Virus record (IMG/VR): IMGVR_UViG_2706794662_000007
Length of the DNA stretch: 64,000 nucleotides
Strand: one strand, 5' to 3'
Origin: a virus
Lineage: Duplodnaviria; Heunggongvirae; Uroviricota; Caudoviricetes
The position numbers were made by a program, and so were the translations under genes. Positions 4,569-63,327 of this stretch are shown piece by piece; within the stretch, counting starts at the first letter, position 1, and each line of letters begins with the position of its first letter. Under the pieces are notes generated by a model that ran no database searches, had not been told where the DNA came from, and was given only the letters and a program-made list of their open reading frames with translations.

Positions 4569-4632
4569 TAAGTAATCACTTACTTATTATAATAGCCAAA
4601 TAACATACAAAAGGCACTAAGGAAAGAGGTTT

Positions 4633-6654: not shown

Positions 6655-7248
6655 ATGAAACGTTCGTTACTTCTTGCTTGTATATACCTCTCGTCATTTT
6701 CCGCCAATGCGTTGTCAGATATCGTCTCCGACATGCAAAAAACGTACAGCATGTATACTTCTGAAGACGTACTAAAATACGAATCACGAGGTCTGATTCA
6801 ACCAGTCTGGTTCAGATTCTCAGATAACGCAGAAGAAACAATACTTAATGCAGGAAAAGAAAGATTACGGTTGCAAATTAACGGAACCGCTGTACCAGAA
6901 AACGTTAATGTAAGCTCTGACGAAGCCATGAAGCCATCTGGAATTGTTTTGGAAGTTCAAGACGGCACACTTTACTGTGATGAAATGGCTACAACAGGTT
7001 GCCAAGTAAACATTAGGGTTGGCAATGAAGAGCCTATCGTTACTTACGCCAAGGCTGAAGGGAATACAAGTGGAAAGGTATTGTTTATCGATGAAAATAC
7101 CTCAAAACGTATCGTTCGTGACATACAGAAAACAGCGAACTCTAAATCCGTCGATAAAAAAATCTATGTTGAGGTTCCCTTCTTTGTCGTTGGTAACAAA
7201 GAATTTAAATTTGGGTTGCTGAAAACACCTCTAAGAGTATCAGAATGA
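6655..7248 (+). CDS. secreted protein with cleavable signal peptide (hypothetical)
   Basis: N-terminus MKRSLLLACIYLSSFSANA; in AT-rich island; stop overlaps next start (ATGA). Confidence 0.5.
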   Translation: MKRSLLLACIYLSSFSANALSDIVSDMQKTYSMYTSEDVLKYESRGLIQPVWFRFSDNAEETILNAGKERLRLQINGTAVPENVNVSSDEAMKPSGIVLEVQDGTLYCDEMATTGCQVNIRVGNEEPIVTYAKAEGNTSGKVLFIDENTSKRIVRDIQKTANSKSVDKKIYVEVPFFVVGNKEFKFGLLKTPLRVSE

Positions 7249-7766
7249 GAACATTGGACATCACCTACGGCATACCGGCTGAAGTATGGCCGCGAGACTA
7301 CGAACATGCTGAACGTACCTTGCTCTTCTGGCGGAGTGCAAAATTTCCTGTAAGAGTCACTCTCGAAGACGGCCAAGTGTTTTGCATGTATGTCTACGGG
7401 CTATTGAGCGCAAGAAATAAGCTGAACCTCACACCAGATCCGCTTAGCAACACAAATCGTATAAGGCTCCCTCTTGAGCGCATTAGCACAATTGAGTCGG
7501 GCATAGAAGAGGTTGACACTTCATTCACAGGTCGACTAACGCTAAACAATGAACAGATGGTTAATCAGCCATCACGTCGTGACTTTTTTAAGATATGTCG
7601 TCAGGCTTACCAAAACGGCAAATCTATAAGGGTCTACATGGCAGACGGTCGCGAAATTGAGGGAACGTCAGATGGCGTTGACGCCTGTCTAGTCACACTT
7701 AAGTTGGAAGACGGTAGAAAAATACTTATTTTCTTCGATTGGGTTGAACGAATCCTTCCGTTTTAA
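7245..7766 (+). CDS. hypothetical cytoplasmic protein coupled to secreted protein
   Basis: 173 aa ORF overlapping upstream stop. Confidence 0.5.
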   Translation: MRTLDITYGIPAEVWPRDYEHAERTLLFWRSAKFPVRVTLEDGQVFCMYVYGLLSARNKLNLTPDPLSNTNRIRLPLERISTIESGIEEVDTSFTGRLTLNNEQMVNQPSRRDFFKICRQAYQNGKSIRVYMADGREIEGTSDGVDACLVTLKLEDGRKILIFFDWVERILPF

Positions 7767-9579: not shown

Positions 9580-9843
9580 NNNNNNNNNNNNNNNNNNNNN
9601 NNNNNNNNNNNNNNNNNNNNNNNNNNNNNNNNNNNNNNNNNNNNNNNNNNNNNNNNNNNNNNNNNNNNNNNNNNNNNNNNNNNNNNNNNNNNNNNNNNNN
9701 NNNNNNNNNNNNNNNNNNNNNNNNNNNNNNNNNNNNNNNNNNNNNNNNNNNNNNNNNNNNNNNNNNNNNNNNNNNNNNNNNNNNNNNNNNNNNNNNNNNN
9801 NNNNNNNNNNNNNNNNNNNNNNNNNNNNNNNNNNNNNNNNNNN
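9580..9843. other. N-run (masked or unresolved sequence)
   Basis: 264 consecutive n. Confidence 1.
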
Positions 9844-10324: not shown

Positions 10325-10674
10325 GATTAATTCCTTATCGTAAATAACAAATTGTTTTCTTGTTGGCGTTAATTATCGTTGTACGAATAAGGCGTCAAAG
10401 TGGAAAGTTGCGGTAGCCGGACGGGAACAGGTGGGTTTGTCGGTTGCCTGGAGGTAAGAGGTTGGTGTTTTTAGCCTGCGGGAAACAGGATGGTCATTTA
10501 AGGCCACCAGCAGTGGTGGCCTTAATAATTATCGACCGATTACGCTAAGGATCTTTTCCTCAACTGATTTGTTGTTGCGACTAAACTGCCTTGCGTATCT
10601 GATGACAGAAGAGGCGTTTTGCTTTCTGACTATCTCGGCTCTTTCCTTCAGGCGTTTCTTGAAATCGCCCATAT

Positions 10675-11049
10675 TTACCACCAGGCGCAGAAGGTCAGTC
10701 TGTTATTGTGAAAGTCGTGGTTCTTAATCAGCTCTTCCACAAGTTTTTTCAACTCCCCCACGTCATGCCAGTACCCTTCATCGTACTCCTGACTGCCGAA
10801 GAAAAAACCTTCACAGGTAGGTAAGTACTCTTCGCAGTTACTTTCGTTCATGTGCATCAAATGAGCTTTCAGAGCACAAATGTCATTCATCGTTAATTCT
10901 AAAAGCTCACAATTTTTGACTTCACCTACGTTGCGTTCCATCCACCCAAAGAGAGCATTGAACTTACGGAAGTAAGCAACCTTCTTTCTGGATGCATCGT
11001 TATTCAGATCGTTTTTTGGTTGCGTCTCAATGTAGATATCAAGTCCCAT
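10675..11049 (-). CDS. hypothetical protein
   Basis: 124 aa ORF; motif A at 11107-11124 upstream. Confidence 0.45.
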   Translation of the reverse strand: MGLDIYIETQPKNDLNNDASRKKVAYFRKFNALFGWMERNVGEVKNCELLELTMNDICALKAHLMHMNESNCEEYLPTCEGFFFGSQEYDEGYWHDVGELKKLVEELIKNHDFHNNRLTFCAWW

Positions 11050-18904: not shown

Positions 18905-19423
18905 CTAAAAATCAAANNNNNNNNNNNNNNNNNNNNNNNNNNNNNNNNNNNNNNNNNNNNNNNNNNNNNNNNNNNNNNNNNNNNNNNNNNNNNNNNNNNN
19001 NNNNNNNNNNNNNNNNNNNNNNNNNNNNNNNNNNNNNNNNNNNNNNNNNNNNNNNNNNNNNNNNNNNNNNNNNNNNNNNNNNNNNNNNNNNNNNNNNNNN
19101 NNNNNNNNNNNNNNNNNNNNNNNNNNNNNNNNNNNNNNNNNNNNNNNNNNNNNNNNNNNNNNNNNNNNNTTTAAAGGAAGATAGGTTCCCCATAGTAGCT
19201 GTCTGCCGTGCGCTCGTGTGAAATACCGGGCCATCTTCGGATTGCTATGCTGCTTAGGAGCGCCTGGTCTGTATGTCTGATACCCGGCCAACATCCCATC
19301 AAACCTGTATAGAGGGAATGTAACAACTCCTTCGCTTTCATCGATCCACTGTCTATATGGATGCACATCATAGCGGTAGTTACGAGTTAGCAAATGAGCT
19401 TCCAGCTTTCCAAATTTAGTCAT
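18905..19423 (-). CDS. hypothetical protein (interrupted by N-run)
   Basis: Start set to MTKFGKLEAH with GAGGGA ribosome-binding site; C-terminal part and frame uncertain. Confidence 0.35.
   Translation of the reverse strand: MTKFGKLEAHLLTRNYRYDVHPYRQWIDESEGVVTFPLYRFDGMLAGYQTYRPGAPKQHSNPKMARYFTRAHGRQLLWGTYLPLXXXXXXXXXXXXXXXXXXXXXXXXXXXXXXXXXXXXXXXXXXXXXXXXXXXXXXXXXXXXXXXXXXXXXXXXXXXXXXXXXXXXXFDF
18917..19169. other. N-run
   Basis: 253 n. Confidence 1.
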
Positions 19424-21078: not shown

Positions 21079-21465
21079 TCACTCTCCTTTTCCCTGAAGC
21101 ATAGCAGCGCGGCAGGCATTCCAGCCTCTCACCTCTGCAATAGCGGCAACAGCATCAACCGCGTACATGCTAAGAGGATTAGGCATTGGTTTTTCTTCCG
21201 GTACTACTGGAACGGGTGGAGCGGCGTAGACCTCAATAATTCCATTATCAATAGGCCATTCTCCATCCTTGAGGTAGTCACTTGTGCCGTCAACTTGCTG
21301 TTCTGCAATGTGGAATGCACCTATTGGTTTTGCTTCCAGCGATGCCAGAGCAATTCGTGCCAGTTCTTCCGCTTCTTCTGCTGGCAGTACAACGTTGCTA
21401 CCAGGTCCGTATGTTTCGCGCCACTGTTTGATTGTCAGTAGTCGCTCTTTGGTAATAGTGGTCAT
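21079..21465 (-). CDS. hypothetical protein
   Basis: 128 aa ORF starting MTTITKERLL with AAGGAG ribosome-binding site. Confidence 0.5.
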   Translation of the reverse strand: MTTITKERLLTIKQWRETYGPGSNVVLPAEEAEELARIALASLEAKPIGAFHIAEQQVDGTSDYLKDGEWPIDNGIIEVYAAPPVPVVPEEKPMPNPLSMYAVDAVAAIAEVRGWNACRAAMLQGKGE

Positions 21466-21475
21466 GTGTTACTCC

Positions 21476-21748
21476 TTAACCCGCAGTGCNNNNNNNNNNN
21501 NNNNNNNNNNNNNNNNNNNNNNNNNNNNNNNNNNNNNNNNNNNNNNNNNNNNNNNNNNNNNNNNNNNNNNNNNNNNNNNNNNNNNNNNNNNNNNNNNNNN
21601 NNNNNNNNNNNNNNNNNNNNNNNNNNNNNNNNNNNNNNNNNNNNNNNNNNNNNNNNNNNNNNNNNNNNNNNNNNNNNNNNNNNNNNNNNNNNNNNNNNNN
21701 NNNNNNNNNNNNNNNNNNNNNNNNNNNNNNNNNNNNNNNAGTTGCCAT
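21476..21748 (-). CDS. hypothetical protein (mostly masked by N-run)
   Basis: ATG at 21748 preceded by conserved junction GGAGAGTGATATG; body is n. Confidence 0.3.
   Translation of the reverse strand: MATXXXXXXXXXXXXXXXXXXXXXXXXXXXXXXXXXXXXXXXXXXXXXXXXXXXXXXXXXXXXXXXXXXXXXXXXXXXXXXXXXXXXTAG
21490..21739. other. N-run
   Basis: 250 n. Confidence 1.
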
Positions 21749-23123: not shown

Positions 23124-23364
23124 TGGCTGCCTCCTGCTTTTCTGCCTTCAACACCATGCGAGAACCATCATCCAGCTCCCACACTATCTCACCACCTTCA
23201 GCCATGACCAGTTGCCACACCAATTGAGCAGCCTCATTGGTAACATCACGACCTGGATCATTGCCAACGCGCATACGTCCACCTTCAACATCGCGCATTT
23301 TTGCCAGCATGATAGTTTTTGATAGCGGTGAAAAACCAAGCTGTAGTCGTGCTGAATTACTCAC
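23110..23364 (-). CDS. hypothetical protein
   Basis: 84 aa ORF. Confidence 0.4.
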   Translation of the reverse strand: MSNSARLQLGFSPLSKTIMLAKMRDVEGGRMRVGNDPGRDVTNEAAQLVWQLVMAEGGEIVWELDDGSRMVLKAEKQEAASERN

Positions 23365-23903
23365 TGGTTGCCTCCTTTGCGAAGCTGGGCAGCAAAGTCA
23401 ACTAACCACTCAGTCATTTCAACCTTCCCTACCAGGTCTGAACCAGGGTGCATACAGCAATCACTCTGCGCCGCTTTGAAATCCTTATACTCATATTCTT
23501 GGGCCACCAGATTTTTTGCAGCTTCTATAGCAGCATCCACCCCCTGCGCACGTACTTCAGCCAGAAAAGCATCGGTGGCTGGAGTCTCCGTTAATTCGCT
23601 AACCCAATTATCTCCGTGTTCCTCGGCACACATCGCATCGAATGCTCGCTCAGATTCTTTCAGGGCTGCATTCTCCGCCGCTAATGCGTCTCTCTGCGCC
23701 CGCAACTTCTCAATTTCGGCAGCCATGTAGTAACCAACCATAGCGAAGACGGCAAAAGAGTTGTCTGCCTCATCAGGCGACACTGAGGCCATTAGCAGAC
23801 CATCGTAATAATCGTGACTCCCATTGGTGATCGCCACCTCATAGGAGTCGTGGTTCTCACGCTTGTGAATGAGAACTACGGGGTTTTCGATTTTGTTACT
23901 CAT
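23361..23903 (-). CDS. hypothetical protein
   Basis: 180 aa ORF; conserved start context aaaaacacATG. Confidence 0.5.
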   Translation of the reverse strand: MSNKIENPVVLIHKRENHDSYEVAITNGSHDYYDGLLMASVSPDEADNSFAVFAMVGYYMAAEIEKLRAQRDALAAENAALKESERAFDAMCAEEHGDNWVSELTETPATDAFLAEVRAQGVDAAIEAAKNLVAQEYEYKDFKAAQSDCCMHPGSDLVGKVEMTEWLVDFAAQLRKGGNQ

Positions 23904-24041
23904 GTGTTTTTCTCTTCTTTGCTGTTACATAAGCACTACCAAGTGCTGGTTTATTTTCACAAATAAGAAAATGTAGAAAACAATTTATTTAAGGCCACAA
24001 CTTATGGCCTTTATTTATTCATGCCGAAGGATTTGTAGCGT

Positions 24042-24422
24042 CTAATTGCCGTATAAAATGGGGTGAGGTGCTTGCCAGTAGGCTCCACCGGTCCATGTGA
24101 ACCCCATGCGAATAAGAGTGTTTATTGCGGCTTTGGTAGACTCCGATTCGACACTGGCTTTACGAAACTCTTGAACCTCTTTCGCCAACCTGTATGTAAT
24201 TGTGCAGGGGACGATTGCAGCCCAGCCTTTCTCATGACTGTTAATGACCATCTGGATGTGACCATCCAGAATAGGTTGATTAGACATGTTATTGAAAATG
24301 TCTGCCTGTTTTTGAATGTGAAGAAAAAGCCTTGCCAGCTCCATTTGCTCACTACGAGACAAGGGATTATCAAGAGGGCTTTTTGCAAAAGCGGCTATAC
24401 GCTGTGCGTCAATGCCAAACAT
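24042..24422 (-). CDS. hypothetical protein
   Basis: 126 aa ORF. Confidence 0.45.
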   Translation of the reverse strand: MFGIDAQRIAAFAKSPLDNPLSRSEQMELARLFLHIQKQADIFNNMSNQPILDGHIQMVINSHEKGWAAIVPCTITYRLAKEVQEFRKASVESESTKAAINTLIRMGFTWTGGAYWQAPHPILYGN

Positions 24423-25126
24423 CAGCGCACCTCACCATCTTTATGGCTGGAGTTAACTTCCGCCATTAAATGTCTGACGTAATCGACAAGAGAGCCACCT
24501 GGTGGAATCTGGCATTCCTCAACTAACTGGAAGTAGATATCCGCAGCATTACGTGTATTGCTACCCGCGCATATTCTTTCTTCCCGAAGTGCATGAAGCT
24601 CGTTGATCAAACGGTCACACTCTCCGTTACGCTGATCCACAACAGCCTCAAGTTCTGCGACGCGTTCACCTGGCGTCTTACCTTCTTCGCGTTGGATGGT
24701 AACGACGAAATCGCCAATTGCAGGGACGTTGTAATCCAGCTCAAGGTAGTTTTTGGCACCGCTGCGGACGAACTCACCCGCGAACATGGTGGCGAACATC
24801 TCAGAGGCCATTGTGCTGTTGAAAAGTGACTCCAGATCTAACGGAGTCCCGGCAGCCAGAGCCTCTTTTGCTGTATCCATTGTATCCATGAACCGATCAA
24901 ACTCATTAGCGCGCTTTTCCAGGTCTTTCCATTGCTCGCTCCAACGTTTGGCAATGAAGTCTATGAATGTTTTCGCGGATTCATCAAAATCCCCCTCAAA
25001 CTTAACGATGCCTTTATCAATAATGATCTGGCCTACCGCATCCTCTGCATAACCTTTCAATGTAAACTTGAAAGGAAAATCAGAATGGCCTGTGACGTTA
25101 AAATGCTCTAACTGGAGGTTGTTCAT
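24422..25126 (-). CDS. hypothetical protein
   Basis: 234 aa ORF; motif B upstream at 25170-25190. Confidence 0.5.
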   Translation of the reverse strand: MNNLQLEHFNVTGHSDFPFKFTLKGYAEDAVGQIIIDKGIVKFEGDFDESAKTFIDFIAKRWSEQWKDLEKRANEFDRFMDTMDTAKEALAAGTPLDLESLFNSTMASEMFATMFAGEFVRSGAKNYLELDYNVPAIGDFVVTIQREEGKTPGERVAELEAVVDQRNGECDRLINELHALREERICAGSNTRNAADIYFQLVEECQIPPGGSLVDYVRHLMAEVNSSHKDGEVR

Positions 25127-25187
25127 ATGTTTTTCTCTTATCGTTTAGTTATTACATTCTTACACAAATTAAGTAAGTATTTACCTA

Positions 25188-26892
25188 TCATTTAACGCGT
25201 TTGAAAACGTATACGCTGACTGTGATCCCTGTGTCTTCAAACTCGTTGGTAAACGACTTCCCTCTGGCATAAACGTAATTATCCATCGTCATCCAGTCCA
25301 GTATTGGCGCNNNNNNNNNNNNNNNNNNNNNNNNNNNNNNNNNNNNNNNNNNNNNNNNNNNNNNNNNNNNNNNNNNNNNNNNNNNNNNNNNNNNNNNNNN
25401 NNNNNNNNNNNNNNNNNNNNNNNNNNNNNNNNNNNNNNNNNNNNNNNNNNNNNNNNNNNNNNNNNNNNNNNNNNNNNNNNNNNNNNNNNNNNNNNNNNNN
25501 NNNNNNNNNNNNNNNNNNNNNNNNNNNNNNNNNNNNNNNNNNNNNNNNNNNNNNNNNNNNNNNNNCCAGATCGGCGTTAATATAGGCCAGAAGATCCCCA
25601 CGTCCGGCTTGAGGCTCCAACAGCTTCTCACCAGGCTTCAATTCAGTGGCTCTGGCAACGTACTCAGCAATCAAGCGTGGGGTAGGGTAGAACTGGTGTG
25701 ATTTTGTATCCGGTATTAAACCGGTAGCCACAATCGTATTTAGCGTATGGCCGATCTCATACGGGAACTGCCAGTGCTTTTTCTCCTGCACGCCGCCAAT
25801 GAAGCTCAGTGTGCGCTCAAGCTCTTCCACCTGCGACTTCTGGAGAGCTGAATCAGAGAAGTACCATACGCCTTTGTCTTTGCTCAATCGCCCGTCACGA
25901 AGCGCAGTGCGAACCGGCACGGAGATCGTCTTCTGGATTAACCCGAACTGCTTTGGTGCCCGTGTTTTTGGCGCAGTTCGGCATGGCGCGGGGATTGCAG
26001 CAGGCATACTGTAAGCCAGCACCTCATTCAACTTCCAGGCCACGTCAGGATGTATTTCAAAGTGAACGTTGCCGTTCTTGAACATCTTCACGCGCATCAG
26101 ATTTCCATCGACGTTCATCCAGTCACCGGTCTGGCAGTCGTTTGCCCGATACGCAGCTGATAGCACCTCAGCAGTGCGGTTGATGGTAATAAATTCTTTG
26201 TGCGCGAAGAAATGAAGCAAGACACGCAGATCGTCGATGTAGTCCTCTTTGCGATAGTTCACGCTAACGCTGTCACGCCAGAAATCAGAAATGCAGTCAG
26301 CGATTATCAGACGCTCGCTGAAACCGTTTGTCTTATTTGTCTTGTGCGCAGGACTCAGCGCCTTAAACAAGCCATACACGCGCTCAGAGAGATATTTGTG
26401 CCTGTCATTCAGCAAATTAAGCATCGTTGGTATGACCGTTTCTGCTTTGAACTCCGGTACACCAACGAACTCTTTAACCTTCATCTGATAGCCGGTTCTG
26501 TCAGTTTTGATGACTTCCTGCTTGCCCTCGATAAATAGCTCACGCCACTCGTCGCGACGGGAAGCTGGCATGATCAGCAGAACGTTAGTCATATCCGTAA
26601 CCTTCCTCCAGTACTCGGCCCAAATATTCTGTTTCACCCATTCCAGATCGACGTTATCCAGCCAGACTCGATTCAAACGTGAGCGATCTTCATCTGGTCG
26701 GTGGTTTAGTCGAAGCAGGCGATTAATCATGTTGTGGCGTTCATCGCCATAAACGAAGTCGTGTACCTGATACATGAAGGAGATCTCTTTCTCGCACTCG
26801 GCCACAATTTCGTGGATGACGTTCATTTCCTGTCGATAGTCGATAGCAGTGTTTGAGCTGGCATCGCCCATGATGGAAAGGGCTGTATTCAT
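25188..26892 (-). CDS. putative N6-adenine DNA methyltransferase with large N-terminal extension (C-terminal part masked)
   Basis: FYPTPRLIAEYV followed by EPQAGRGDLLAYI (motif X then motif I, gamma-class order) just before the N-run; the catalytic (D/N)PPY region would lie in the masked part. Confidence 0.45.
25311..25565. other. N-run
   Basis: 255 n. Confidence 1.
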
Positions 26893-27951: not shown

Positions 27952-28521
27952 TCAATTAGAGCTTTGAAAGGCTTTGTGTGGCTGTGTTGCGAGGTTATGT
28001 CGATGGCTTAACTCACGCATCATGTCTTCAAGGCGACTCTTTGTGTCGTCGAGTTGGTCAGCCATTGCTCCTAAAAGCTGACGAACTACCATCGGATCGT
28101 CGCTGTTTAGTGATGGCATTTTATAACCCGCCTGAGAAGACATCAGATTGAATGCTGACATCAACATCGTTAGAGAGGATTTAAGCCCGGCAATTTCACG
28201 ATCTTTGCTGGCAATAATCGTCTCACTTTTGTTACTGTCATGAGTTCCTTGAGTCTCGATCACCATATCCAAAGTCTCTTGCAACTTATCAGCTCTCTGT
28301 TTTTCAGCAAGATAATGAACACCGAAATGATGTGCTAAAGCTACAACCTGAGTTGGCTCTTCAAAGGTGGACTCAAAATTAAGTGCTGTAACCACTCTCT
28401 CAAAAATGGAAACGTCTTCTATTCCTCGAAGAATGGCTAACATTTTGACAAGTTCATTAGCATCCATTTCTTCGAATAGGGCGTTTTGTTCATCAGCTAT
28501 TGCTTTGCATTTCTCGCACAT
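27952..28521 (-). CDS. hypothetical protein
   Basis: 189 aa ORF; motif A at 28538-28555 upstream. Confidence 0.5.
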   Translation of the reverse strand: MCEKCKAIADEQNALFEEMDANELVKMLAILRGIEDVSIFERVVTALNFESTFEEPTQVVALAHHFGVHYLAEKQRADKLQETLDMVIETQGTHDSNKSETIIASKDREIAGLKSSLTMLMSAFNLMSSQAGYKMPSLNSDDPMVVRQLLGAMADQLDDTKSRLEDMMRELSHRHNLATQPHKAFQSSN

Positions 28522-28660
28522 ATGTTTTCCTTAATGCTTAAACAAGTTGTTTTCTTATTGGCTTTATTGTGATGTGGCATAAAAGGGGAGCAAGCTAAAC
28601 GTAAAGGTGCAAACTCTCTATTTCGGTCAACGAAACACAATGGCCATTTGACCCTTGTCA

Positions 28661-28819
28661 TTAACACGTTGCTTTACGGACTAGCGGATAAGCGAAGTAG
28701 ATCGCCAGACCAATGAGGACGCCATCAGAAATGACAGACATCATCTTTCCCGTAAAATCCACCAACACCGCCATCACCAGAAGAGCAATGACGGTCACAA
28801 GCCGGAATCTCTCAAGCAT
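28661..28819 (-). CDS. small hydrophobic peptide (52 aa), coupled to TerB-like gene
   Basis: Manual translation MLERFRLVTVIALLVMAVLVDFTGKMMSVISDGVLIGLAIYFAYPLVRKATC; ATG overlaps upstream stop as TAATG; below ORF-track size cutoff. Confidence 0.35.
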   Translation of the reverse strand: MLERFRLVTVIALLVMAVLVDFTGKMMSVISDGVLIGLAIYFAYPLVRKATC

Positions 28820-29244
28820 TAGAGATAAGCATCCAGTGACAACTGAAGCGCCTGGGCGATCTTTTTCAGCGCCTGCTCTTCTGGTTCATCAATGCCGTCT
28901 TGGTCGGCAATATCAAGGCACAGACAAAGTACATCTACTGCATCATCAGTCCCGGCCACATCCGCCAGCTCACGTAAAGCCTGGGCATTAGCACGGCGCG
29001 GTGAGGCTTCGTATTGAGCGCGGATATTGGCGCTCATCTGGGCTATCTCACCAGCAAAAGGAGAAAATGCAGGCAGAGCTGCAATTGTTTTCTCAAGAAT
29101 GGAAATTTCTTTTGCATCGCATGTACCGTTGGCATAGGAGATCATGTACCCACCCCACACGGTGGCTTCAACCGCATCACGGTTCTCCATTTTTTTGACT
29201 TCGATAACTGCTTTACGAGTTTTCTTTTTGAAGAAACCTAACAT
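28819..29244 (-). CDS. TerB-like domain protein (hypothetical)
   Basis: 141 aa, all-helical profile reminiscent of TerB; motif A at 29268-29284 upstream. Confidence 0.4.
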   Translation of the reverse strand: MLGFFKKKTRKAVIEVKKMENRDAVEATVWGGYMISYANGTCDAKEISILEKTIAALPAFSPFAGEIAQMSANIRAQYEASPRRANAQALRELADVAGTDDAVDVLCLCLDIADQDGIDEPEEQALKKIAQALQLSLDAYL

Positions 29245-29337
29245 GTGTTTTCCTTTTGTTATTGGTCAAAACAAGTTGTTTTCTAGTTAAATAAATTGCT
29301 TACGCAAAGACGGTCAATGCATATGCACTAACAACCG

Positions 29338-31350: not shown

Positions 31351-31581
31351 TCATTTCGATTGATTATTTTCTCGACCATGTAGTTGAACATTCAAGGCAA
31401 ACACCTCGTTGATCAACTCACCTAAAAGCTGTTCAACAAGTTCGCGATGCTCCCCAAGATGCAAGCACTTAATTGCCCACTCGTACAAGTTGAAAGCCTG
31501 CTCACGATCTTTCATCATTTCACGAGCCTGGGCCAGAAAATCGCTGTCTACGAGCGCAACGACATTAGTCGGGTATGACAT
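31351..31581 (-). CDS. hypothetical protein
   Basis: Start MSYPTNVV with AAGGA ribosome-binding site. Confidence 0.4.
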   Translation of the reverse strand: MSYPTNVVALVDSDFLAQAREMMKDREQAFNLYEWAIKCLHLGEHRELVEQLLGELINEVFALNVQLHGRENNQSK

Positions 31582-31689
31582 GTTGGTTTCCTTAAAGTGG
31601 TTCATAAAATCGATTTTAAAGCGTCTGGGAAGGGGGTCTAGTGGATTCTGTAGTGATGTTCAGGTCTGGAGTCTCTGATACAAAACAGC

Positions 31690-38312: not shown

Positions 38313-39455
38313 TCACAGGTCTGCAAACTGGCTTAGAGAAGCCTTGTCCACGGTAGAATCGATCTGACCTACCAGATATGTGCTTTGCTCTGCCTCTTGT
38401 GGTGCAATTTGCAGTGTGTCGGTTAACAACCACTTGTTCATCCAGACCAGCGGATCGGTGGTAACCTCTGGAAATAAAGCCTTCAGGCCAAGACGATTCA
38501 TAGCCAGATTGGTGCGGTATTTTACATAGGTCTTCAAAATATCCGCGTTTAAACCAATCATCGAACCGTCTTTGAAGAGATACTCGGCCCAGTTCATTTC
38601 TTGTTCGGCGACTGATTTCATGGTGTCGTAAATGACGTTTTCTTCATCAGCAGCAATCTCTTTCCACAATAAACCTTCGCGACCGGTACGCATGAAGCGG
38701 ATCATGCGTTCAGTTCCTTCGCAATGCAGAGCTTCATCACGGGCAATAAAGCGCATAATTTTGGTGTTACCCTCAAGCAACTTCCGTTCGCCAAAGGCAA
38801 ACGTACATGCAAAACTTACATAGAAACGGATCGCCTCAAGCGCATTAATGGACACCAACGTGCGGAAAAGCTGACGGTGCAAAGGATATGGCTCCCAGCC
38901 ATATTCATTTACGTACAGACGCTCAAATTCCTTCTCGCCTAACGACTGGCGCTCGCAGGTCATCCCATAAAGCCTGTCATATTCAGCAGAGATACTGATC
39001 GCTCGGTTGATGATTTCTTCATCCGTAACAATACCGTCAAAAACAATGCTCGGATCGTCCACCATGCCACGAATAATGTGGGTGTAGCTGCGGCTATGGA
39101 TAGTCTCAGAGAAAGACCATGTTTCAACCCACGTTTCCAGTTCAGGAATAGAGATAAGCGGCAGCAGCGTTGCATTTGGGCTACGTCCCTGAACTGAATC
39201 GAGTAACGTTTGATAACGGAGATTGCTCAGAAAAATGTGACGTTCGTGGTCCCGCAGCTTCGTGTTGAAGTCGATACGATCGCTCGAAATATCAACTTCT
39301 TCCGGCCGCCAGAAGAAAGACAATTGACGTTCAATCAACTTTTCAAAATCACGGTATTTTTGCTGATCGTAACGTGCCACGTTGACAGATTGTCCGAGGA
39401 ACATAGGCTCTTTGGTTGCATCATTAGCACCCAAACGGAACGTTGAATATGACAT
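38313..39455 (-). CDS. nrdB: ribonucleotide reductase class Ia beta subunit
   Basis: Near-colinear with E. coli NrdB as I recall it ([38 protein letters not shown]-terminal YLVGQIDS...); start set to MSYSTFRLG. Confidence 0.95.
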
Positions 39456-39536
39456 GTGTTTTTCCTTTTGCTTTTTGATGTGTTTAAACAAGTTGTTATC
39501 CTATTTGTTTAAACAAGGCTTACAAATCAAAGAGAA

Positions 39537-41876: not shown

Positions 41877-41894
41877 GTATCACCAAATAAAGAG

Positions 41895-41916
41895 GGCCAC
41901 TAAATATAGTGGCCCA
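41895..41916 (-). terminator. terminator hairpin
   Basis: gggccactatatttagtggccc followed by T-rich run on minus strand. Confidence 0.5.
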
Positions 41917-45424: not shown

Positions 45425-46510
45425 TCACACAGCCTCCGAACTCTCCGCTTCGGTGAGGATTTCCTGACACAAAATATCCAACTTGCTCAGATCAAATCCG
45501 CCGTCAGTATCGTGGACAATCTTGCAATAAGCAGATACCGACTCTCCCAGGCTATCGATTTTGCTGGTTTCAGTTGTGCTGGCTGTCCCTTCCATCATTG
45601 ATGACTTACGGATGAAGTTGCACACGACACCTTTTGCGCCCATTGTTTTGAGGATGTTCTGGTACTTAATGCCTTCTTCATCGTTCTCAATTACGGCGCG
45701 GAAACGCACGTAGTTGCCGCGAATTTGGTCATCAGCAACATCATCTTCCAGGTTAATGAATTTAGGCGCACTGGTTTCGTAGTGACTGAAACTGCCGTCC
45801 GGGTTTACGATCATGTAACCAGCCAGAGATCCAACATCTCCCCAATTTTGATGGGTCAGTGCACCGACACTGATAACTCCAGGAATGACCTCTTTGTGGT
45901 TGTGGTAATGCCCACTAAGCACGAGACGAAAGCCGATATCCTTTAACTCCTGCGCATCGATACCGACGTCAGGCATTGTTGGAATGGCTTTGTTAATGGA
46001 TGTATGGATAACAACGTCATGATTATCACCTTCTACGCTCTTACGTAATGCTTTCAGATCGCTGATAAGCTCCGCATGATTGTTACGCCAGCTAATCAGG
46101 TGGACAGTCACATCACCAATTTTTATTGAGTGTGGGCGTTTGCCACATACGATTACCACGCCGATAGAACTCAGCGATGCTGCTGCGTTGGCGCTATATA
46201 CTGAATCGTTGGTTTCAAGATCGTGATTACCGGCCAGCATTACTACTGTCAGATCAAGCTCGTTGATAATCCACTTGTACGTTTCAGTTACGTAATGCAA
46301 AACAGAAGGGGACACAGTTCCTCGGACGTGAAATGTATCACCGGCAACCAACATGTACTTACAACCGGCCTTCTTCATGGCGATGGCTGCTTCTTTCGTT
46401 GCTTCCAACTGTATTTCAAGTCTGGAGTTAAGCCCCTCTGCGTTCGTCGTGGAGAACGCATCCCATTTGTGGTAGTGGCAGTCAGAAATGACGCCGTATG
46501 GCAAAGTCAT
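45425..46510 (-). CDS. SbcD/Mre11-like nuclease (gp47-like)
   Basis: Calcineurin-like phosphoesterase motifs DCHYH, GDTFH, GNHD, GHYH. Confidence 0.85.
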   Translation of the reverse strand: MTLPYGVISDCHYHKWDAFSTTNAEGLNSRLEIQLEATKEAAIAMKKAGCKYMLVAGDTFHVRGTVSPSVLHYVTETYKWIINELDLTVVMLAGNHDLETNDSVYSANAAASLSSIGVVIVCGKRPHSIKIGDVTVHLISWRNNHAELISDLKALRKSVEGDNHDVVIHTSINKAIPTMPDVGIDAQELKDIGFRLVLSGHYHNHKEVIPGVISVGALTHQNWGDVGSLAGYMIVNPDGSFSHYETSAPKFINLEDDVADDQIRGNYVRFRAVIENDEEGIKYQNILKTMGAKGVVCNFIRKSSMMEGTASTTETSKIDSLGESVSAYCKIVHDTDGGFDLSKLDILCQEILTEAESSEAV

Positions 46511-46764
46511 GTGTTTTTCCTTTGTGGTTATTTTGATACAAATTTTAAGAGCAATGAGAAGGTAAACAACTATGCATAACGGTATGTTAGGAATGAAACG
46601 AGCGTCTTAATATACAAAATTTATAAGTAAGTATATACCTATTTGTTGTGGCGCAACTTTGCTTGTCTGTATGACTAAAAATAAGACAGGATCACTGTAG
46701 AACGCTATGAGAGCTATTTTGAGGAGGCGTAGATTCTATCTACGCCAATATACGATCTGGAGGG

Positions 46765-50167: not shown

Positions 50168-50443
50168 TCACTCAAAAGTGCTGATGCTTAAAATACGCTC
50201 AAGATGTTCAGCATCTTCATTACTGATTTGTTGAGTCTCTTCTACGTACCAACAGTTGCCGTTATGCCAACAAACACCATCATCATCAACCATCACTGAA
50301 TCAGCGTCATGACCTGTATATTCAACAAGAGTACGCTGGATCAGCGCGTCAGTTTCTTCATCGTTAAGGCCATCGACTTTGACCATAAAAAGCGGAAACA
50401 CGTCATAGACAGTGCTGGTAACGATTCGAACTAAAACTCTCAT
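50168..50443 (-). CDS. hypothetical protein
   Basis: 91 aa ORF with conserved start context. Confidence 0.45.
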   Translation of the reverse strand: MRVLVRIVTSTVYDVFPLFMVKVDGLNDEETDALIQRTLVEYTGHDADSVMVDDDGVCWHNGNCWYVEETQQISNEDAEHLERILSISTFE

Positions 50444-50498
50444 GTGTTTTTCCTTTTGTGGTTAGTGTTTACTTATTTTGTTAGTTATGAATAGGCGA

Positions 50499-53937: not shown

Positions 53938-54138
53938 TTATTTCCCCTTTGCTTTGATTAATGAGTTGATAAACTTACGACCAGCAATAAGACCGATTAC
54001 AGGAGCACCAAAACCAACGATAACTCCAAACATGACGGCTAAATCACTCTTGGTAGAAATCAGCGACGGAACCAGTAAACCGTAGATGAGAGCCACTGAA
54101 ACGCCTGTGGCTACTGCCAATAGATAGATTTTGATCAT
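53938..54138 (-). CDS. small two-helix membrane protein upstream of SPFH gene
   Basis: 66 aa, IYLLAVATGVSVALIYGLLV and VMFGVIVGFGAPVIGLIAG; 3 nt from SPFH start. Confidence 0.45.
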   Translation of the reverse strand: MIKIYLLAVATGVSVALIYGLLVPSLISTKSDLAVMFGVIVGFGAPVIGLIAGRKFINSLIKAKGK

Positions 54139-54205
54139 GTGTTTTCCTATGTGGTTGTTATGCGAAAATAATAAGTAAGTACTTATATATTTTCAAGAGA
54201 TAAAA

Positions 54206-54226
54206 AAGGCGTCCTGTGGACGCCTT
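54206..54226 (-). terminator. terminator hairpin
   Basis: aaggcgtccacaggacgcctt followed by T6 on minus strand. Confidence 0.6.
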
Positions 54227-56594: not shown

Positions 56595-57623
56595 TTACAG
56601 AGAGTCCAGCTCTCTCAGTAGGTCATCCAGACCTTCATCTTCCGTCGCAGATGCGGCTGCTACAGATGTCGCTGCGACTGCTTCAGACTCTTTGACTGAT
56701 ACGGCAACGGCAGCGGAACTTGCCTCTGGTTTAAATTCAGTTTCAACGGCACGGAGGATTTCTTCATCAACCAGACTGGTTGGTTCAGAAGCCGGTGTGT
56801 GCGCGGTTGCTACAGCCGTCGCTCCTTCTGTATGACCAGTGACAGAGCCAAATCCAGGTAGTGCCGCAGCCGATGTTTTCGCGGTTGAGGAAATTGCTGG
56901 TGCAGATGCTGCGGCAGTTGGTGCAGCGATGCCAATCAGACGACCCATAGTGCGAACTGTCGACAGAAGACGAGTTTCATCAGCCTGATTTGCGTATGCG
57001 ATCAGATCATGCTGGGTGTTCCAGAATTTATCTTCGATATCGCCTTTGTAGACTTTACGCTTAGGCGAGACGTCATATTTGGTATCGCGACCAGAGCCAG
57101 TACGTTTAATCAGGAATGCGTAGCCTTCCTCTTTGCTCAGTGGATTGCCGATATCATCAGCGATGTCTTCGGTGATTGCTTTGCAGATATCATCGAATAC
57201 AGTAGACGGCAGCTCGATTAATTGGCATTTCTCAGCATCTGCGAAATCCTCACGAGCAGAAAGAATGCCGTTGACCAGGTAGCGAGGAGTGGCACGCATT
57301 TGACCGATGCGTTCTTCCATTGCTTTGTTACCCTTGTGACGAGCGCGACCTTCCATCACCATTTCGCATAGCTGACAAGCGCGACCGTGAGTATGTTGCT
57401 CACAAATATAAGCGTTGGTTGCTTCTTTACCTTCCTCGTTCTGATACTTAACGTAGTGCATACCGAAAGTCTGGAAGAACTTACCGTTTGGGTCGTCTTT
57501 ATTCGGGAAGATGCGGATATAGTTGACGCCGTCTTTTAAGCGAGTCAGATCAACGTTGTTGCCACGTTTGGCGGCAATGTCTTCACGAGTTTTGTTAAGC
57601 AAATCAAGTAATGTCTTAGACAT
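56595..57623 (-). CDS. single-stranded DNA-binding protein (gp32-like)
   Basis: Zn-ligand-like C/H cluster YICEQHTHGRACQLCE, A/S/T-rich linker, acidic tail DEGLDDLLRELDSL. Confidence 0.6.
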   Translation of the reverse strand: MSKTLLDLLNKTREDIAAKRGNNVDLTRLKDGVNYIRIFPNKDDPNGKFFQTFGMHYVKYQNEEGKEATNAYICEQHTHGRACQLCEMVMEGRARHKGNKAMEERIGQMRATPRYLVNGILSAREDFADAEKCQLIELPSTVFDDICKAITEDIADDIGNPLSKEEGYAFLIKRTGSGRDTKYDVSPKRKVYKGDIEDKFWNTQHDLIAYANQADETRLLSTVRTMGRLIGIAAPTAAASAPAISSTAKTSAAALPGFGSVTGHTEGATAVATAHTPASEPTSLVDEEILRAVETEFKPEASSAAVAVSVKESEAVAATSVAAASATEDEGLDDLLRELDSL

Positions 57624-57740
57624 GTGTTTCTCCTTGTTGTGATTTGGCCGATGGCGCTATGCGCGTTGGGCTTTCGTTCATTCGTGGCTCTTTCGAGCTG
57701 TTAAATGATAGATCAGTACTTACTTATTATCTATCAAAAA

Positions 57741-58172
57741 TCAACGGGGAGTAATAAAGCGTTCAGAGCCTAATCGCTCTAATTCAACGATGGCCATCTT
57801 TGACGCCTGAACGATCATGTCTCGGCGATGCGAAAAGGCGGCGACAGCATGTTTGTATATGTCTGCTATGTGCCGTGCGTCATCCAACTTCTGACGTTTA
57901 GATAGATACTGTGGGTTCGTTTTAACCTTAGCGTCCAGTACAGACTCGTTGAACTTAATGCCGTTCATACTCAAGTTCTTACGCTCTGTGTCGTATAGCT
58001 TTGCTTCAACAGCTTCAAGGTTAAGTTTTGCCTCTGCGACACTTCTTTCTGCATGAGCGAGTTTTGAGCCATACTCCATTAAAAGGCGGGGTTGTCTACG
58101 CCAGACTTCCTCCAGATTGTCTCGGTCAAACTCGAGATCAGACATTATTTTCTCGTAAATATCGGTGATCAT
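57741..58172 (-). CDS. hypothetical protein (helical; possible recombination mediator)
   Basis: 143 aa ORF between ssb and dnaE; function not recognised. Confidence 0.45.
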   Translation of the reverse strand: MITDIYEKIMSDLEFDRDNLEEVWRRQPRLLMEYGSKLAHAERSVAEAKLNLEAVEAKLYDTERKNLSMNGIKFNESVLDAKVKTNPQYLSKRQKLDDARHIADIYKHAVAAFSHRRDMIVQASKMAIVELERLGSERFITPR

Positions 58173-58267
58173 GTGCTTTCCTTTTTACTTATCATCTTAT
58201 ATTGATTATATCATTGTGATGATAAGGCAAGGAGTTCGAGGATAGGGGATATGAGGGGATAAGAGAA

Positions 58268-58290
58268 AACATGGCCATAGAGGCCATGTT
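58268..58290 (-). terminator. terminator hairpin after dnaE
   Basis: aacatggcctctatggccatgtt followed by T-rich run. Confidence 0.55.
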
Positions 58291-58297
58291 TATTGGA

Positions 58298-61200: not shown

Positions 61201-61816
61201 CTGGCTCTATTTTCAATGCGCTGGCGACTTTCATCGCCCGGACGTTAATCTGGTCGTAGAATGGGGTAGGGTGCGGATAAACCACACTATAGAAGTTGTC
61301 TTTTCCACCCGGTGTAATCAGTGTGCTTATGATTTTTGCAAAATCGTTGCGTTGGAACACGCTACCGATGTCGGAAGTGAGCAGGATGATGTTGCCTTTG
61401 GCATATGTAGAAACCAACTGTTCGAGCGAGAGACGCGGTACAAAGTAGAACTGTTCTCGTGTGTTGGCCACCGTCATTAGTTCGCAGATGTCGCGATATC
61501 CTTGCTCATTTTTAATTAGAGCGGTAAACGAGTAGTTACGTCCTCGCTCTAATGATTCCATACATCCCTTAGATTCTTTAGCAAGTTTATCCCGGTGCTC
61601 GTATGTGGGATCATCAACGATGTTTAGTTTCACACCACAAATAACCGCCATGTCGTCACCAGCGGCACGTTGTAGTGGAATAACACTCGCAATATTCATG
61701 CTATCTGCTGAAATTACAGCGGTGTAGCCAGCTTCTCTGGCAATCTTCACCGCGTTTTCTGCTTTTAGAGCCGACTCCCCAAGTGAGAAGTCAGTTCGAA
61801 CCATCAGTGCCTTCAT
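58298..61816 (-). CDS. dnaE: DNA polymerase III alpha-type replicative polymerase (PHP domain N-terminus)
   Basis: 1172 aa; N-terminal PHP-like region, GFCGYFLMVRDLMNHSRETGIPVGPGRGSSAGSLVAWCIGITNVDP palm/fingers signature. Confidence 0.9.
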   Translation of the reverse strand: MKALMVRTDFSLGESALKAENAVKIAREAGYTAVISADSMNIASVIPLQRAAGDDMAVICGVKLNIVDDPTYEHRDKLAKESKGCMESLERGRNYSFTALIKNEQGYRDICELMTVANTREQFYFVPRLSLEQLVSTYAKGNIILLTSDIGSVFQRNDFAKIISTLITPGGKDNFYSVVYPHPTPFYDQINVRAMKVASALKIEPVAFYPAYYESIDDADIKDIAHMVTNNIKIDQPHRLRIPHQRDNAVNGRRHLLEALKAFSVRMDVPVTAAMASTTQDTIIDACTWRWHELPPALPKMADDEPATLMKLAVAGLRKRLTTKEFGYTPPASENRVYVERLKYEMDTLTRLGFCGYFLMVRDLMNHSRETGIPVGPGRGSSAGSLVAWCIGITNVDPIRHGLLFERFINPERLDLPDADLDFSQARRHEVIEYLNERYGEDYVAGIPNFTYLGAASALRDTARIYGVESADMAVSKELKNVEDDSLPLEELREQLASLDKYATKYPDAFNAACKLQSLMRGFGRHAAGMIVAGVPLTERTPVERRGDARCIAFDKRYCEAMGLIKLDVLGLATLDLLDSAKRYIKENTGEDINLDTISLEDRKVLDGFAAGYTQGVFQLESGPMRKLLKDLGGGIEPMSFKTVVATTALFRPGPIQSGMLDDYVSVAKGFMTPESLHPVLDELTAETNGVILYQEQTMNATRLLAGFTMAEADGVRKAIGKKDMEKMKSMGEKFIVQAQAGWIDVELEDGTTQRIHRAEHFKCEDGTMKTVEEALEYGAKLPINAVRVTASHPGLSEMKAKEIWTAFEKNGAYQFNKSHSVAYSLISYQSMWLKTHYPAEFFAAALTILGEDKHQGLVKDALTYGIRVLPPDVNVSSNRIEIRTLEDGSQVLYAPFSAVKGCSENGCQAIMRAREKVGGKFESLAQFEEAVEKRACNSRVRESLQKVGAFASIEPGSLPATDPERLRDQAELMGNLVIDAVKASRPFEMNSKRSAEINVLMTRMAAEMGLGDELIRPSIGIKPKIMIILDNANGNDARTGYFMENGYDDFKAKLLTAGDLRMGDLYVTGVCKKVKDKEKDYTKDEIGQFTDFMREEINLVRPTYVLTCGSRATALFNNKNKPSDLVGRKEYLPDLDVTVFYGFNPNILYFRPEEGERLEAILADVAETIKS

Positions 61817-61996
61817 GTGTTTTTACCTTTCTGGTTTTTTTGATTTTGTCATTTGGGAAGCCTACGAACTTCCCATGCATCGAAATCGCAACTTCTTTTG
61901 CTGATTGGTGACAATAAGGCTTGTCTGGACACTCCAGACAAGCCTTACCAGTTTCAGAAGCAGCGATAAGAGAGCCGAAACATCCTTTACGCACGA

Positions 61997-63232
61997 TCAA
62001 CCAAATATTTTTTGAACAACTTCACGAGCCGCTTGTGCAGAAGCTGAAGGGAGTTTGTTAATGAAAGAACGCTCAATACCTGTCACAAAATCGCCTCGCA
62101 TCATTCCAATCTTGGCCGACAACAAAAGCTCACGAGGCCCAATCGGTTGGCTGATATTGTGTTCTTCGTATCCATCGCGAACGATACCGGCAAACTTAAC
62201 CATCTTTTCAGCGTATTCATCCACGATGCCTGCATTTGTCAACATGTTGATCTCTGCGTCTTTGCTCATGTATTTCACATTCGAAACGATGCCAAAACGC
62301 GAAAAGTTCGCGGCGTTCTGGATGTTTGTACCCTGGTACAAGCCGGTTTCATCACCAGATCCGTTCGTGTTGCCAGTGCCAATGAAAGCAAACCGTTCAT
62401 GCGGAGTAATGCGACGCCATTCTGGAGTTGCCTCTTTGATGACCAACGCTTCACCTTCCAGCACTGGCTGATACACGCCAAGAATTTGTGGAAACGCAAA
62501 GTCGTATTCATCCGCGAGGTAAACCCAGCCATGCTTCATTGCGAGCGCAAGCAAGCCAGGTTCGAAATACGTAGAGCCATCACGCGCCAGAATTTGCCCC
62601 GTAACATGTGCCTCTTCCATTGATGCTGTATGTTGGGCACGGATCAACGGACGATTGAGCAAAGCACATAGCTGTGTAGGCAATGACGATTTGCCTGTTC
62701 CTGCATGACCCCACAAATAGCCAGGTATGCCAAGTTCAAGCATCATGAAAATATCTTTGATCAGTTCGAAGTCGCCATATACGTAGCCTTTCTTCACTTC
62801 GGGAACGAACTCTGGATACGGCGTATTGACGTTGACGCTAACCATGAGCGGCGTCCCACGTTTTGTTCCGAGTTCTTCCACCGTTACGTTTAGCAGTTCG
62901 TGAGCTGCGACCAGATCTGTCTTGTACTCAACTGTGCCTGTGTAGCCAGGGCTACTGGTCAAGCCAGAAGATTTGGCCATTTCGCTTTTTTGCTCGGCAC
63001 GTTTAGCTTGAATTGCATCAAGTGCCTTTTTCGATAGCGTTGGCTCATCTGGAAACTGTGTTGTGTACATTTTCAGTACGGTGTCAGGATCGGCATCTTT
63101 TACTGACTCAGGAATGCCCTCGCAATTACCATTGGCTACATGGGACTTAAAATAGTGAAATGATTTTCCGCACCACTTGCAAACAAGGTAATCAGAAGGA
63201 TTTTTTTCATTTTGCAGTGCAGTAGTAGTCAT
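61997..63232 (-). CDS. MoxR/CobS-like AAA+ ATPase
   Basis: Walker A GHAGTGKSS, Walker B VYLADEYD; N-terminal C4-like cluster CKWCGK...C. Confidence 0.65.
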   Translation of the reverse strand: MTTTALQNEKNPSDYLVCKWCGKSFHYFKSHVANGNCEGIPESVKDADPDTVLKMYTTQFPDEPTLSKKALDAIQAKRAEQKSEMAKSSGLTSSPGYTGTVEYKTDLVAAHELLNVTVEELGTKRGTPLMVSVNVNTPYPEFVPEVKKGYVYGDFELIKDIFMMLELGIPGYLWGHAGTGKSSLPTQLCALLNRPLIRAQHTASMEEAHVTGQILARDGSTYFEPGLLALAMKHGWVYLADEYDFAFPQILGVYQPVLEGEALVIKEATPEWRRITPHERFAFIGTGNTNGSGDETGLYQGTNIQNAANFSRFGIVSNVKYMSKDAEINMLTNAGIVDEYAEKMVKFAGIVRDGYEEHNISQPIGPRELLLSAKIGMMRGDFVTGIERSFINKLPSASAQAAREVVQKIFG

Positions 63233-63327
63233 GCGTTTTTCCTTTGTTTTCTAATGAGCTTTCAACTTCTTATATAAATATACCATCAAATATCGTAAGT
63301 GATTACTTATCATTAAGGCTATTCTAA

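Follow-up and report, generated by a model that had tools for sequence, protein, structure and literature searches.

A set of about fourteen early genes, for DNA replication, recombination and accessory functions, in the 64,000-nucleotide stretch of DNA examined here (hereafter the window; IMG/VR virus record IMGVR_UViG_2706794662_000007) begins with almost the same short sequence: 13-16 bases that comprise a ribosome-binding site and the spacer AAACAC, directly before ATG. The window is the non-structural part of an SSU5-like phage-plasmid of the Escherichia phage CMS-2020a/Cyrano type. By sequence comparison, this motif is real, statistically solid and evolutionarily conserved, and it goes further than a generic ribosome-binding site; none of the papers searched for SSU5-like elements describes it. 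The explanation I prefer, with somewhat less than even confidence, is that it is a start-associated, cis-acting translation-initiation motif, in which a well-spaced AAGGA Shine-Dalgarno sequence would be joined to an ACA-type enhancer spacer. Phage-plasmids of the SSU5 type are very common among clinical Escherichia, Klebsiella, Salmonella and Enterobacter, and their gene regulation is essentially unstudied.

A preliminary description of the window had listed twelve start codons preceded by a near-identical string. All twelve exist, on the minus strand, each as the first in-frame start codon of its open reading frame (ORF). With up to two mismatches, GGAAAAACACATG matches the window 11 times, each time on the minus strand where an ORF starts, against an expectation of 2.79, and none of 100 shuffles reached 11 matches; counting looser variants brings the total in the window to 14 sites. 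All nine minus-strand occurrences of AACACATG are ORF starts, and the plus strand has none. AACAC occupies positions -5 to -1 in 8 of 76 window genes (binomial P = 9e-14). The exact 16-mer AAAGGAAAAACACATG is common to nrdB (39455), sbcD (46510) and a gene for a protein of 91 amino acids (50443); the copies at 28521 (AAGGAAAACATATG) and 29244 have one A fewer, and 31581 (AAGGAAACCAACATG) is a weak variant only, with orthologues that end in CTATC or CCATC. Two members were absent from the original list, namely 21465 (GGAGTAACACATG) and the UvsY-like gene at 58172 (AAGGAAAGCACATG). The interval first highlighted, 23895-23906, takes in the start codon of an Eae-like gene (23901-23903) together with part of its motif. 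An exact 15-mer scan of viral contigs returned mostly single chance matches in unrelated contigs.

The positional preferences of the motif were examined in a pooled set of 43 motif-bearing starts from the window and four relatives. Every copy has a Shine-Dalgarno core (AAGGA, GGAG or GAGG) at -12 to -8, as any generic ribosome-binding site might; such purine-rich cores lie 5-9 nucleotides ahead of the start codon and are complementary to the 3' end of 16S rRNA. Positions outside the selection rule are also nearly invariant, with A at -6 in 42 of 43 and A at -12 in 40 of 43, and the eight bases upstream of the Shine-Dalgarno sequence (-13 to -20) are A/C-rich and nearly G-free. ACA stands at -4 to -2 in every copy, often with a second ACA or CACA upstream of the Shine-Dalgarno sequence. 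Motif genes start with ATG without exception (44/44) and carry A or T at +4 in 43 of 44 cases, as against 70% in other genes. Among A/C-only hexamers preceding start codons, 31 of 45 are AAACAC; thus a particular word has been selected, and not composition alone. The claim that the uniformity reaches beyond the Shine-Dalgarno sequence therefore stands: the AAACAC spacer, the ATG and the A or T at +4 are specific, and it is the spacer that is kept in relatives while the Shine-Dalgarno sequence varies. The preliminary description had also named the result that would undo it, a generic ribosome-binding site with an unconserved spacer, and the alignment of start regions did not give that result. 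A generic site would have a spacer without sequence conservation, and the spacer of the motif is conserved.

Orthologues were tabulated for the window, SSU5, one Enterobacter plasmid, two Klebsiella plasmids and the Pectobacterium plasmid Drgb1; across nrdAB, nucleotide identity is about 76% and 70% for the Klebsiella plasmids and about 66% for Drgb1. The names nrdB, sbcD, gp32-like ssb and dnaE are consistent with the Cyrano annotation; the element also carries T4-like gp32, UvsY-like and UvsW-like genes, and its nrdAB segment is present in 741 plasmid records (Klebsiella, Escherichia, Enterobacter, Salmonella and others). The sequence (A)AACAC abutting ATG is kept at cobS, dnaE, ssb, the membrane-protein gene, the 91-amino-acid gene, sbcD, nrdB, tciA and others, at protein identities between orthologues of 37-90%, while the Shine-Dalgarno part varies among AAGGA, GAGGG, AAGAGA and AGGT. 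The motif occurs in 13 of 52 genes of the more distant Klebsiella plasmid and in 0 of 46 genes of Drgb1. Over 14 bases, different genes within one genome resemble each other about as much as orthologous sites between genomes, and sites within a genome are closer than non-orthologous sites between genomes (2.6-3.8 versus 4.0-4.8 mismatches, in a small sample), which hints at genome-specific motif optima. Outside the non-structural genes the motif is sparse: in the roughly 30-kb structural part of CMS-2020a it is found only at a DnaB-like helicase gene and an adjoining gene for 393 amino acids. Eae-like homologues in lambdoid phages share only the C-terminal part with the window gene.

The motif is also restricted by gene position. 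In the pooled genomes it precedes 38 of the 197 genes that follow a gap of 40 nucleotides or more and 5 of the 126 that follow a smaller one (P = 4e-5); in the window alone the corresponding figures are 12 of 48 and 0 of 28. Hairpins resembling terminators, and promoter-like sites, are found upstream of several copies. This is clearest at 54138, where a terminator is followed by a promoter-like site with a palindrome in its spacer and then by the motif; judged from the putative transcription start, the leader to this ATG would be about 23 nucleotides long and composed almost entirely of A and C plus the Shine-Dalgarno sequence. The motif follows either of two operator-like palindromes (described below) or neither, and it is thus a module of its own and does not belong to a single promoter cassette that was duplicated. 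Leaders of motif genes are G-poor, A/C-rich and predicted to be single-stranded: the predicted unpaired probability over -15 to +3 is 0.66 for motif starts and 0.49 for other starts, and the predicted minimum free energy in 90-nucleotide windows is -9.8 kcal/mol versus -17.3 kcal/mol (P about 1e-11).

In the reading I prefer, which is the most economical one, the motif would act on the mRNA. An AAGGA-type Shine-Dalgarno sequence at a fixed distance, followed by the selected, A/C-only AAACAC with its ACA triplet, would give efficient, structure-free and unambiguous loading of the 30S subunit onto the first cistrons of many short early transcription units. These units would serve DNA replication, recombination, nucleotide metabolism and accessory functions, each preceded by a terminator or by a promoter that bears an operator. 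The flanks, consisting of A and C, can neither pair with one another nor offer alternative start codons or Shine-Dalgarno-like sequences, and the mode of action of the ACA/C-A-rich element would be that of the known ACA enhancers of translation. In AAGGAAAAACAC+AUG (spacer AAAACAC) the aligned Shine-Dalgarno spacing is about 5 nucleotides, and the optimum is reportedly about 5 nucleotides. The start site would be an open one for first cistrons, which cannot rely on translational coupling; downstream cistrons, for which coupling is possible, and late structural genes would not use the motif. The motif would thereby define a gene class and, among the Enterobacteriaceae members of the SSU5 family, be under purifying selection, and since it is absent from the host sample and from phage structural genes, this class looks like a separately controlled gene set. 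C/A-rich translational enhancers are a feature of enterobacterial mRNAs. Experiments in Salmonella have shown that ACA motifs close to the Shine-Dalgarno sequence enhance translation; replacing ACA lowered expression of yifK by up to 90% and of dppA more than 100-fold (Yang et al., 2014; PMC3879156). The present motif likewise places ACA in an unstructured stretch near the Shine-Dalgarno sequence, the structure here being predicted.

Several observations weigh against so general a mechanism. The exact word and its register are more uniform than a position-independent enhancer requires, each genome has its own preferred A-run length, and the motif is absent from the structural and lysis genes of SSU5 and from the highly expressed structural genes of the family. 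The five motif genes that the more distant Klebsiella plasmid has beyond those of the window (a recombinase gene, a ruvC-like gene and three genes of unknown function) have window orthologues with other start contexts, a lineage-specific gain. CAC at -3 to -1 was found in none of 65 annotated Escherichia coli K-12 genes, a sample that includes ribosomal protein operons, tufA, fusA and rpoA, and AACACATG is absent from the 50 kb that hold these genes. T7 is known for strong ribosome-binding sites. Among its 57 genes no pre-start 5-mer dominates, the commonest occurring only twice. On the other side, ACAC-type spacers do occur in strong start sites, such as GGAGACAC in T7 and rplR (AAGGTAACACT ATG) and rpoA (GGACACA ATG) in E. 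coli. Taken together, the strictness of word and register, the class restriction and the lineage-specific gains are more readily reconciled with a dedicated reader molecule than with the ribosome in general. Nevertheless, a cis-acting, enhancer-type ribosome-binding site explains most of the data as well as a translational operator does.

The preliminary description had suggested such an operator, and this is the main rival, though I consider it less likely than the cis-acting motif. A trans-acting RNA-binding protein would then recognise the motif and regulate the early genes together, either by preventing translation of leaky early transcripts while the element is a plasmid or by switching early genes off late, a function like that of T4 RegA. 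The specific word, the strict register, the confinement to ATG and the A or T at +4 speak for it, and the class restriction with absence from the host sample and T7, as well as the lineage-specific gains with a genome-specific consensus, point the same way. The best candidate for the reader is the FljA-family protein encoded at 7245-7766, which matches Pfam PF03614 (phase-1 flagellin repressor FljA) over its full length (E = 1.4e-68) and whose putative operator RNA would be AAAGGAAAAACACAUG. Searches of about 40 small or unknown proteins with Pfam, PHROGs and NCBIfam found no regulator of the RegA, CsrA, KH or S1 type, and this protein was the only recognisable post-transcriptional regulator.

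The FljA-like gene is a core gene of the family, present in 831 plasmid records that include 341 from Klebsiella and 62 from Yersinia. Klebsiella and Y. pestis are non-flagellated hosts, and no obvious use for a flagellin repressor is known in Klebsiella or Yersinia. In phage records the gene is found only in SSU5-like phages, bar two weak partial matches in short fragments, and in an LF82 lysogen, where the early genes are silent, its transcript (CYRAN_114) exceeds theirs; Cyrano is inducible with ciprofloxacin. Proteins of the FljA type keep fliC mRNA from being translated (PMC2652032), and the Salmonella and Citrobacter flagellin start, GAUAAGGAAAAGAUC-AUG, agrees with the motif in its Shine-Dalgarno sequence, A-run and spacing. 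Other observations speak against the assignment. The FljA-like proteins of E. coli elements share 100, 86, 75 and 67% identity, yet the motif set is the same (Cyrano); with the protein variable and the motif set constant, the two do not co-vary at the scale of the E. coli lineage. The start of the FljA-like gene itself lacks the motif, the protein could serve to silence host flagellin in motile hosts, and the start site of E. coli fliC bears only a loose resemblance to the motif. A 10-mer, ATAGGATAAC, shared by the E. coli fliC leader and the region upstream of nrdB was dismissed, about six such matches being expected by chance as an estimate.

The motif-less Pectobacterium plasmid is equivocal in this respect. 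A tblastn search of Drgb1 gave no FljA-like match, whereas Pfam revealed a divergent copy that scores only 33 bits. The very divergence of this copy in a plasmid without the motif would suit an operator, but its presence means that there is no clean presence/absence correlation between protein and motif. The divergent gene occupies the syntenic position, and Drgb1 has in addition a gene for a 73-amino-acid Hfq-like protein just upstream of its DnaB-like helicase gene (coordinates 48354-48575 for the Hfq-like gene and 10476-10994 for the FljA-like gene). In the FljA model, it is the N-terminal half that this 73-amino-acid protein matches as well.

A more specific form of the operator explanation comes from structure prediction. 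The AlphaFold model of the FljA-like protein (AF2 predicted local distance difference test, pLDDT, 81.8) consists of two repeats of a helix plus five strands, and its 50 best matches in the PDB are all Hfq. The distal face of Hfq binds A-R-N repeats, and AGG-AAA-AAC is such a run. A-R-N runs are longer at motif start sites than elsewhere (2.7 vs 1.9). Conceivably, then, a tandem-Hfq FljA-like protein might bind AAGGAAAAACAC-AUG of about 16 early genes and so block translation of the genes for lytic replication, recombination and nucleotide metabolism in the plasmid state, the classical repression of flagellin by FljA being derived from this function. I regard this full version as rather improbable. 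If true, the plasmid-encoded reader would be a post-transcriptional switch between the plasmid and lytic life styles.

It is improbable, to a greater degree, that the start sites are targets of a small RNA, with the G/U-rich seed of host GcvB or of a plasmid-encoded RNA pairing with them and blocking their initiation jointly. The R1 region of GcvB, GUUGUGUUUGCA, contains GUGUUU, the complement of AAACAC, and C/A-rich elements and ACA motifs are known GcvB targets (PMC3879156). The mean duplex energy with GcvB 56-100 is indeed lower for motif leaders (-15.8 kcal/mol) than for others (-13.3 kcal/mol), but the difference lies well inside the spread of non-motif leaders. No conserved anti-motif GTGTTTTYY was found outside motif sites in any of six genomes, only sporadic and non-conserved matches; an Rfam scan of the whole window returned no family; and the seed of a small RNA would not need a strict ATG register.

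The other suggestion of the preliminary description, a recombination-module boundary, does not hold up and has very little chance of being right. The shared 13-16 bp would in this case serve as microhomology for the exchange of cassettes between related elements. Homology with Cyrano, SSU5 and a Klebsiella relative does break off precisely where the uvsY-like gene has its ATG (58172), with different upstream DNA in each, and accessory genes of the Eae/Ead type also bear the motif. But 58172 is the only site that coincides with a break: most motif sites, including 39455, 46510, 50443, 54138, 57623, 61816 and 63232, lie inside long collinear alignments, and the motif stays at stable orthologous positions. 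Most other alignment ends are generally diverged intergenic DNA or N-masked runs, of which the window has seven, of 250-329 bases (9580-9843, 16400-16728, 18917-19169, 21490-21739, 25311-25565, 44324-44586 and 55055-55312); these interrupt the recA-like gene, sbcC, metRS and others, break ORF calls and create artificial alignment ends. The segment upstream of the UvsY-like gene, 58173-58305, is variable, with hicAB in its place in Cyrano and cspG in a Klebsiella plasmid, and since it differs in each element it is a hot spot for the insertion of cargo.

Still less probable is an operator at the level of DNA, that is, an asymmetric repressor site that stops transcription into each gene in the manner of the stoperators of L5 and other Cluster A mycobacteriophages. 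The stoperator is an asymmetric site of 13 bp, repeated many times near the boundaries of genes and always in one orientation. The present motif is likewise asymmetric, has one orientation relative to transcription and occurs in about 14-16 copies at the 5' ends of genes, but stoperators act on DNA, have no fixed start-codon register and lack a Shine-Dalgarno sequence, whereas the invariable ATG register of the motif, its inclusion of the Shine-Dalgarno sequence and its confinement to ATG starts point to translation. Two separate palindromic operator-like sequences, moreover, already occupy the same intergenic regions.

The first of these palindromes, AAACAAnTTGTTT, has 15 copies in the window at no more than one mismatch, against 0.5 expected, as 13-bp sites at 992, 1017, 10345, 11110, 12012, 12497, 14062, 14948, 14999, 18842, 23978, 28540, 29269, 39486 and 53025. 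The copies inspected lie 10-40 nucleotides upstream of gene starts, the palindrome is frequent in SSU5 too, and it looks like the operator of a dimeric DNA-binding regulator of many small transcription units. The second, (A)TAAGTA-n-TACTTA(T), lies within the spacers of sigma70-like promoters (4569-4586, 54172-54185 and 57715-57726), with five exact pattern matches at three loci against 0.3 expected and looser copies upstream of 63232, 46510, 37198, 32362 and 25126; it is probably a second class of operator, for a repressor.

Chance, or a generic Shine-Dalgarno sequence with an A-rich spacer, can be set aside: as a Shine-Dalgarno core AAGGA is nothing unusual, and spacers rich in A are common, but the shuffle and binomial tests, the conservation in relatives, the E. 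coli and T7 controls and the predominance of AAACAC among A/C-only hexamers all contradict it.

The motif is a new example of the start-associated, class-specific motifs of translation initiation, for which the closest analogue is found in the start-associated sequences (SAS/ESAS) of Cluster K mycobacteriophages. The SAS is a 13-bp asymmetric sequence with a Shine-Dalgarno core, tied to ATG in one orientation at a subset of non-structural genes; it is rare or absent in the host, precedes genes of unrelated families, often has inverted repeats just upstream, and occurs in few or no copies in some subclusters (Pope et al., 2011; PMC3203893). Each of these descriptive features is matched by the present motif. 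On the other hand, the consensus sequences differ (GGGATAGGAGCCC for the SAS versus AAGGAAAAACAC here), the motif fails the SAS consensus at up to two deviations, the SAS stands 3-7 bp from the start whereas here the spacer abuts the ATG, and the host phylum and phage group are unrelated. Since sequence, host and phage group are all unrelated, the SAS is an analogue and the motif not a member of its family, and because the function of the SAS was still unknown as of 2025 the comparison provides no mechanism.

Three other systems resemble the motif in part. The ACA and C/A-rich enhancers of yifK, dppA and gltI also place ACA in an unstructured C/A-rich stretch by the Shine-Dalgarno sequence, and have been proposed to anchor the 30S subunit or protein S1 (PMC3879156); they differ in lying upstream of the Shine-Dalgarno sequence and being position-independent, whereas here ACA is in the spacer, in fixed register, and the whole of AAACAC is conserved. 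The operators of T4 RegA are similar in that a group of early mRNAs, largely for DNA metabolism, have in common an A-rich, single-stranded start-codon region which a protein of the phage could read. RegA sites are A/U-rich, poorly conserved and overlap the AUG. A RegA homologue (PF01818) was not found among the 37 window proteins scanned in Pfam, all from genes without an established function. Finally, the Salmonella FljA/fliC pair recalls the window in two ways, the presence of an FljA-family protein and a flagellin start, UAAGGAAAAGAUC-AUG, that resembles the motif. It differs in that the window protein is about 36% identical to the product of a Salmonella plasmid gene annotated as phase-1 flagellin repressor, and that the window type of protein is kept in Klebsiella and Y. 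pestis plasmids.

In practical terms, the motif is a simple marker both for an early or independently translated gene set and for the correct annotation of start codons. It is also a compact, apparently strong and structure-free ribosome-binding site of possible synthetic use, and it offers an enterobacterial, genetically tractable counterpart of the mycobacteriophage SAS, whose function has been open since 2011. The coordinates of the motif copies and of associated features are collected in Table 1.

Table 1. Copies of the start motif in the window, with an associated promoter region and the candidate reader protein.
Feature	Position	Strand	Gene or context
GGAGTAACAC+ATG	21463..21475	-	ORF for 128 amino acids, 21079-21465
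AGAAAAACAC+ATG	23901..23913	-	Eae-like gene, 23361-23903; site of the preliminary description
AGAAAAACAT+ATG	25124..25136	-	Ead/Ea22-like gene, 24422-25126
AAGGAAAACAT+ATG, one A shorter	28519..28532	-	gene for 189 amino acids; palindrome AAACAAGTTGTTT 20 nucleotides upstream
AGGAAAACAC+ATG	29242..29254	-	TciA/TerB-like gene, 28819-29244
Weak variant AAGGAAACCAAC+ATG	31579..31593	-	gene for 76 amino acids; orthologues without AACAC
Exact AAAGGAAAAACAC+ATG	39453..39468	-	nrdB; upstream, nrdA terminator hairpin 39555-39537 and palindrome 39486
Exact AAAGGAAAAACAC+ATG	46508..46523	-	sbcD
Exact AAAGGAAAAACAC+ATG	50441..50456	-	gene for 91 amino acids, PHROG 2209 (unknown function)
AGGAAAACAC+ATG	54136..54148	-	gene for a membrane protein of 66 amino acids
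Terminator hairpin 54226-54206, then sigma70-like TTGAAA-17-TATTAT 54196-54168 with palindrome TAAGTACTTACTTA in the spacer	54168..54226	-	from consensus scans
GGAGAAACAC+ATG	57621..57633	-	gp32-like ssb
Variant AAGGAAAGCAC+ATG	58170..58183	-	UvsY-like gene; homology break at ATG
GTAAAAACAC+ATG	61814..61826	-	dnaE; identical in SSU5 and a Klebsiella relative
GGAAAAACGC+ATG	63230..63242	-	CobS-like AAA ATPase gene
Candidate trans-acting factor: FljA family, 173 amino acids, predicted tandem Hfq/Sm fold	7245..7766	+	PF03614, E = 1.4e-68

The minus strand carries nearly all genes from 14 kb to 64 kb. Elsewhere in the window, the genes between 8 and 11 kb (starts 8064, 8988, 10324 and 11049) share another start context, TAAGGA(A/G)nnnAATC ATG; since E. 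coli, too, commonly has ATC ahead of its ATG (5 of 65 genes), this context looks generic. The methionyl-tRNA synthetase gene at 15096-17034 on the minus strand, named MetRS in the Cyrano annotation, is unusual cargo for a phage-plasmid. The nrdA start (41876) lies 18 nucleotides past a strong terminator-like hairpin at 41894-41915 (GGGCCACTATATTTAGTGGCCC plus a T-run) and has a weak Shine-Dalgarno sequence (GGTGATAC ATG). This arrangement of hairpin and start is conserved in relatives, and the hairpin may subject ribonucleotide reductase to control by read-through or attenuation.

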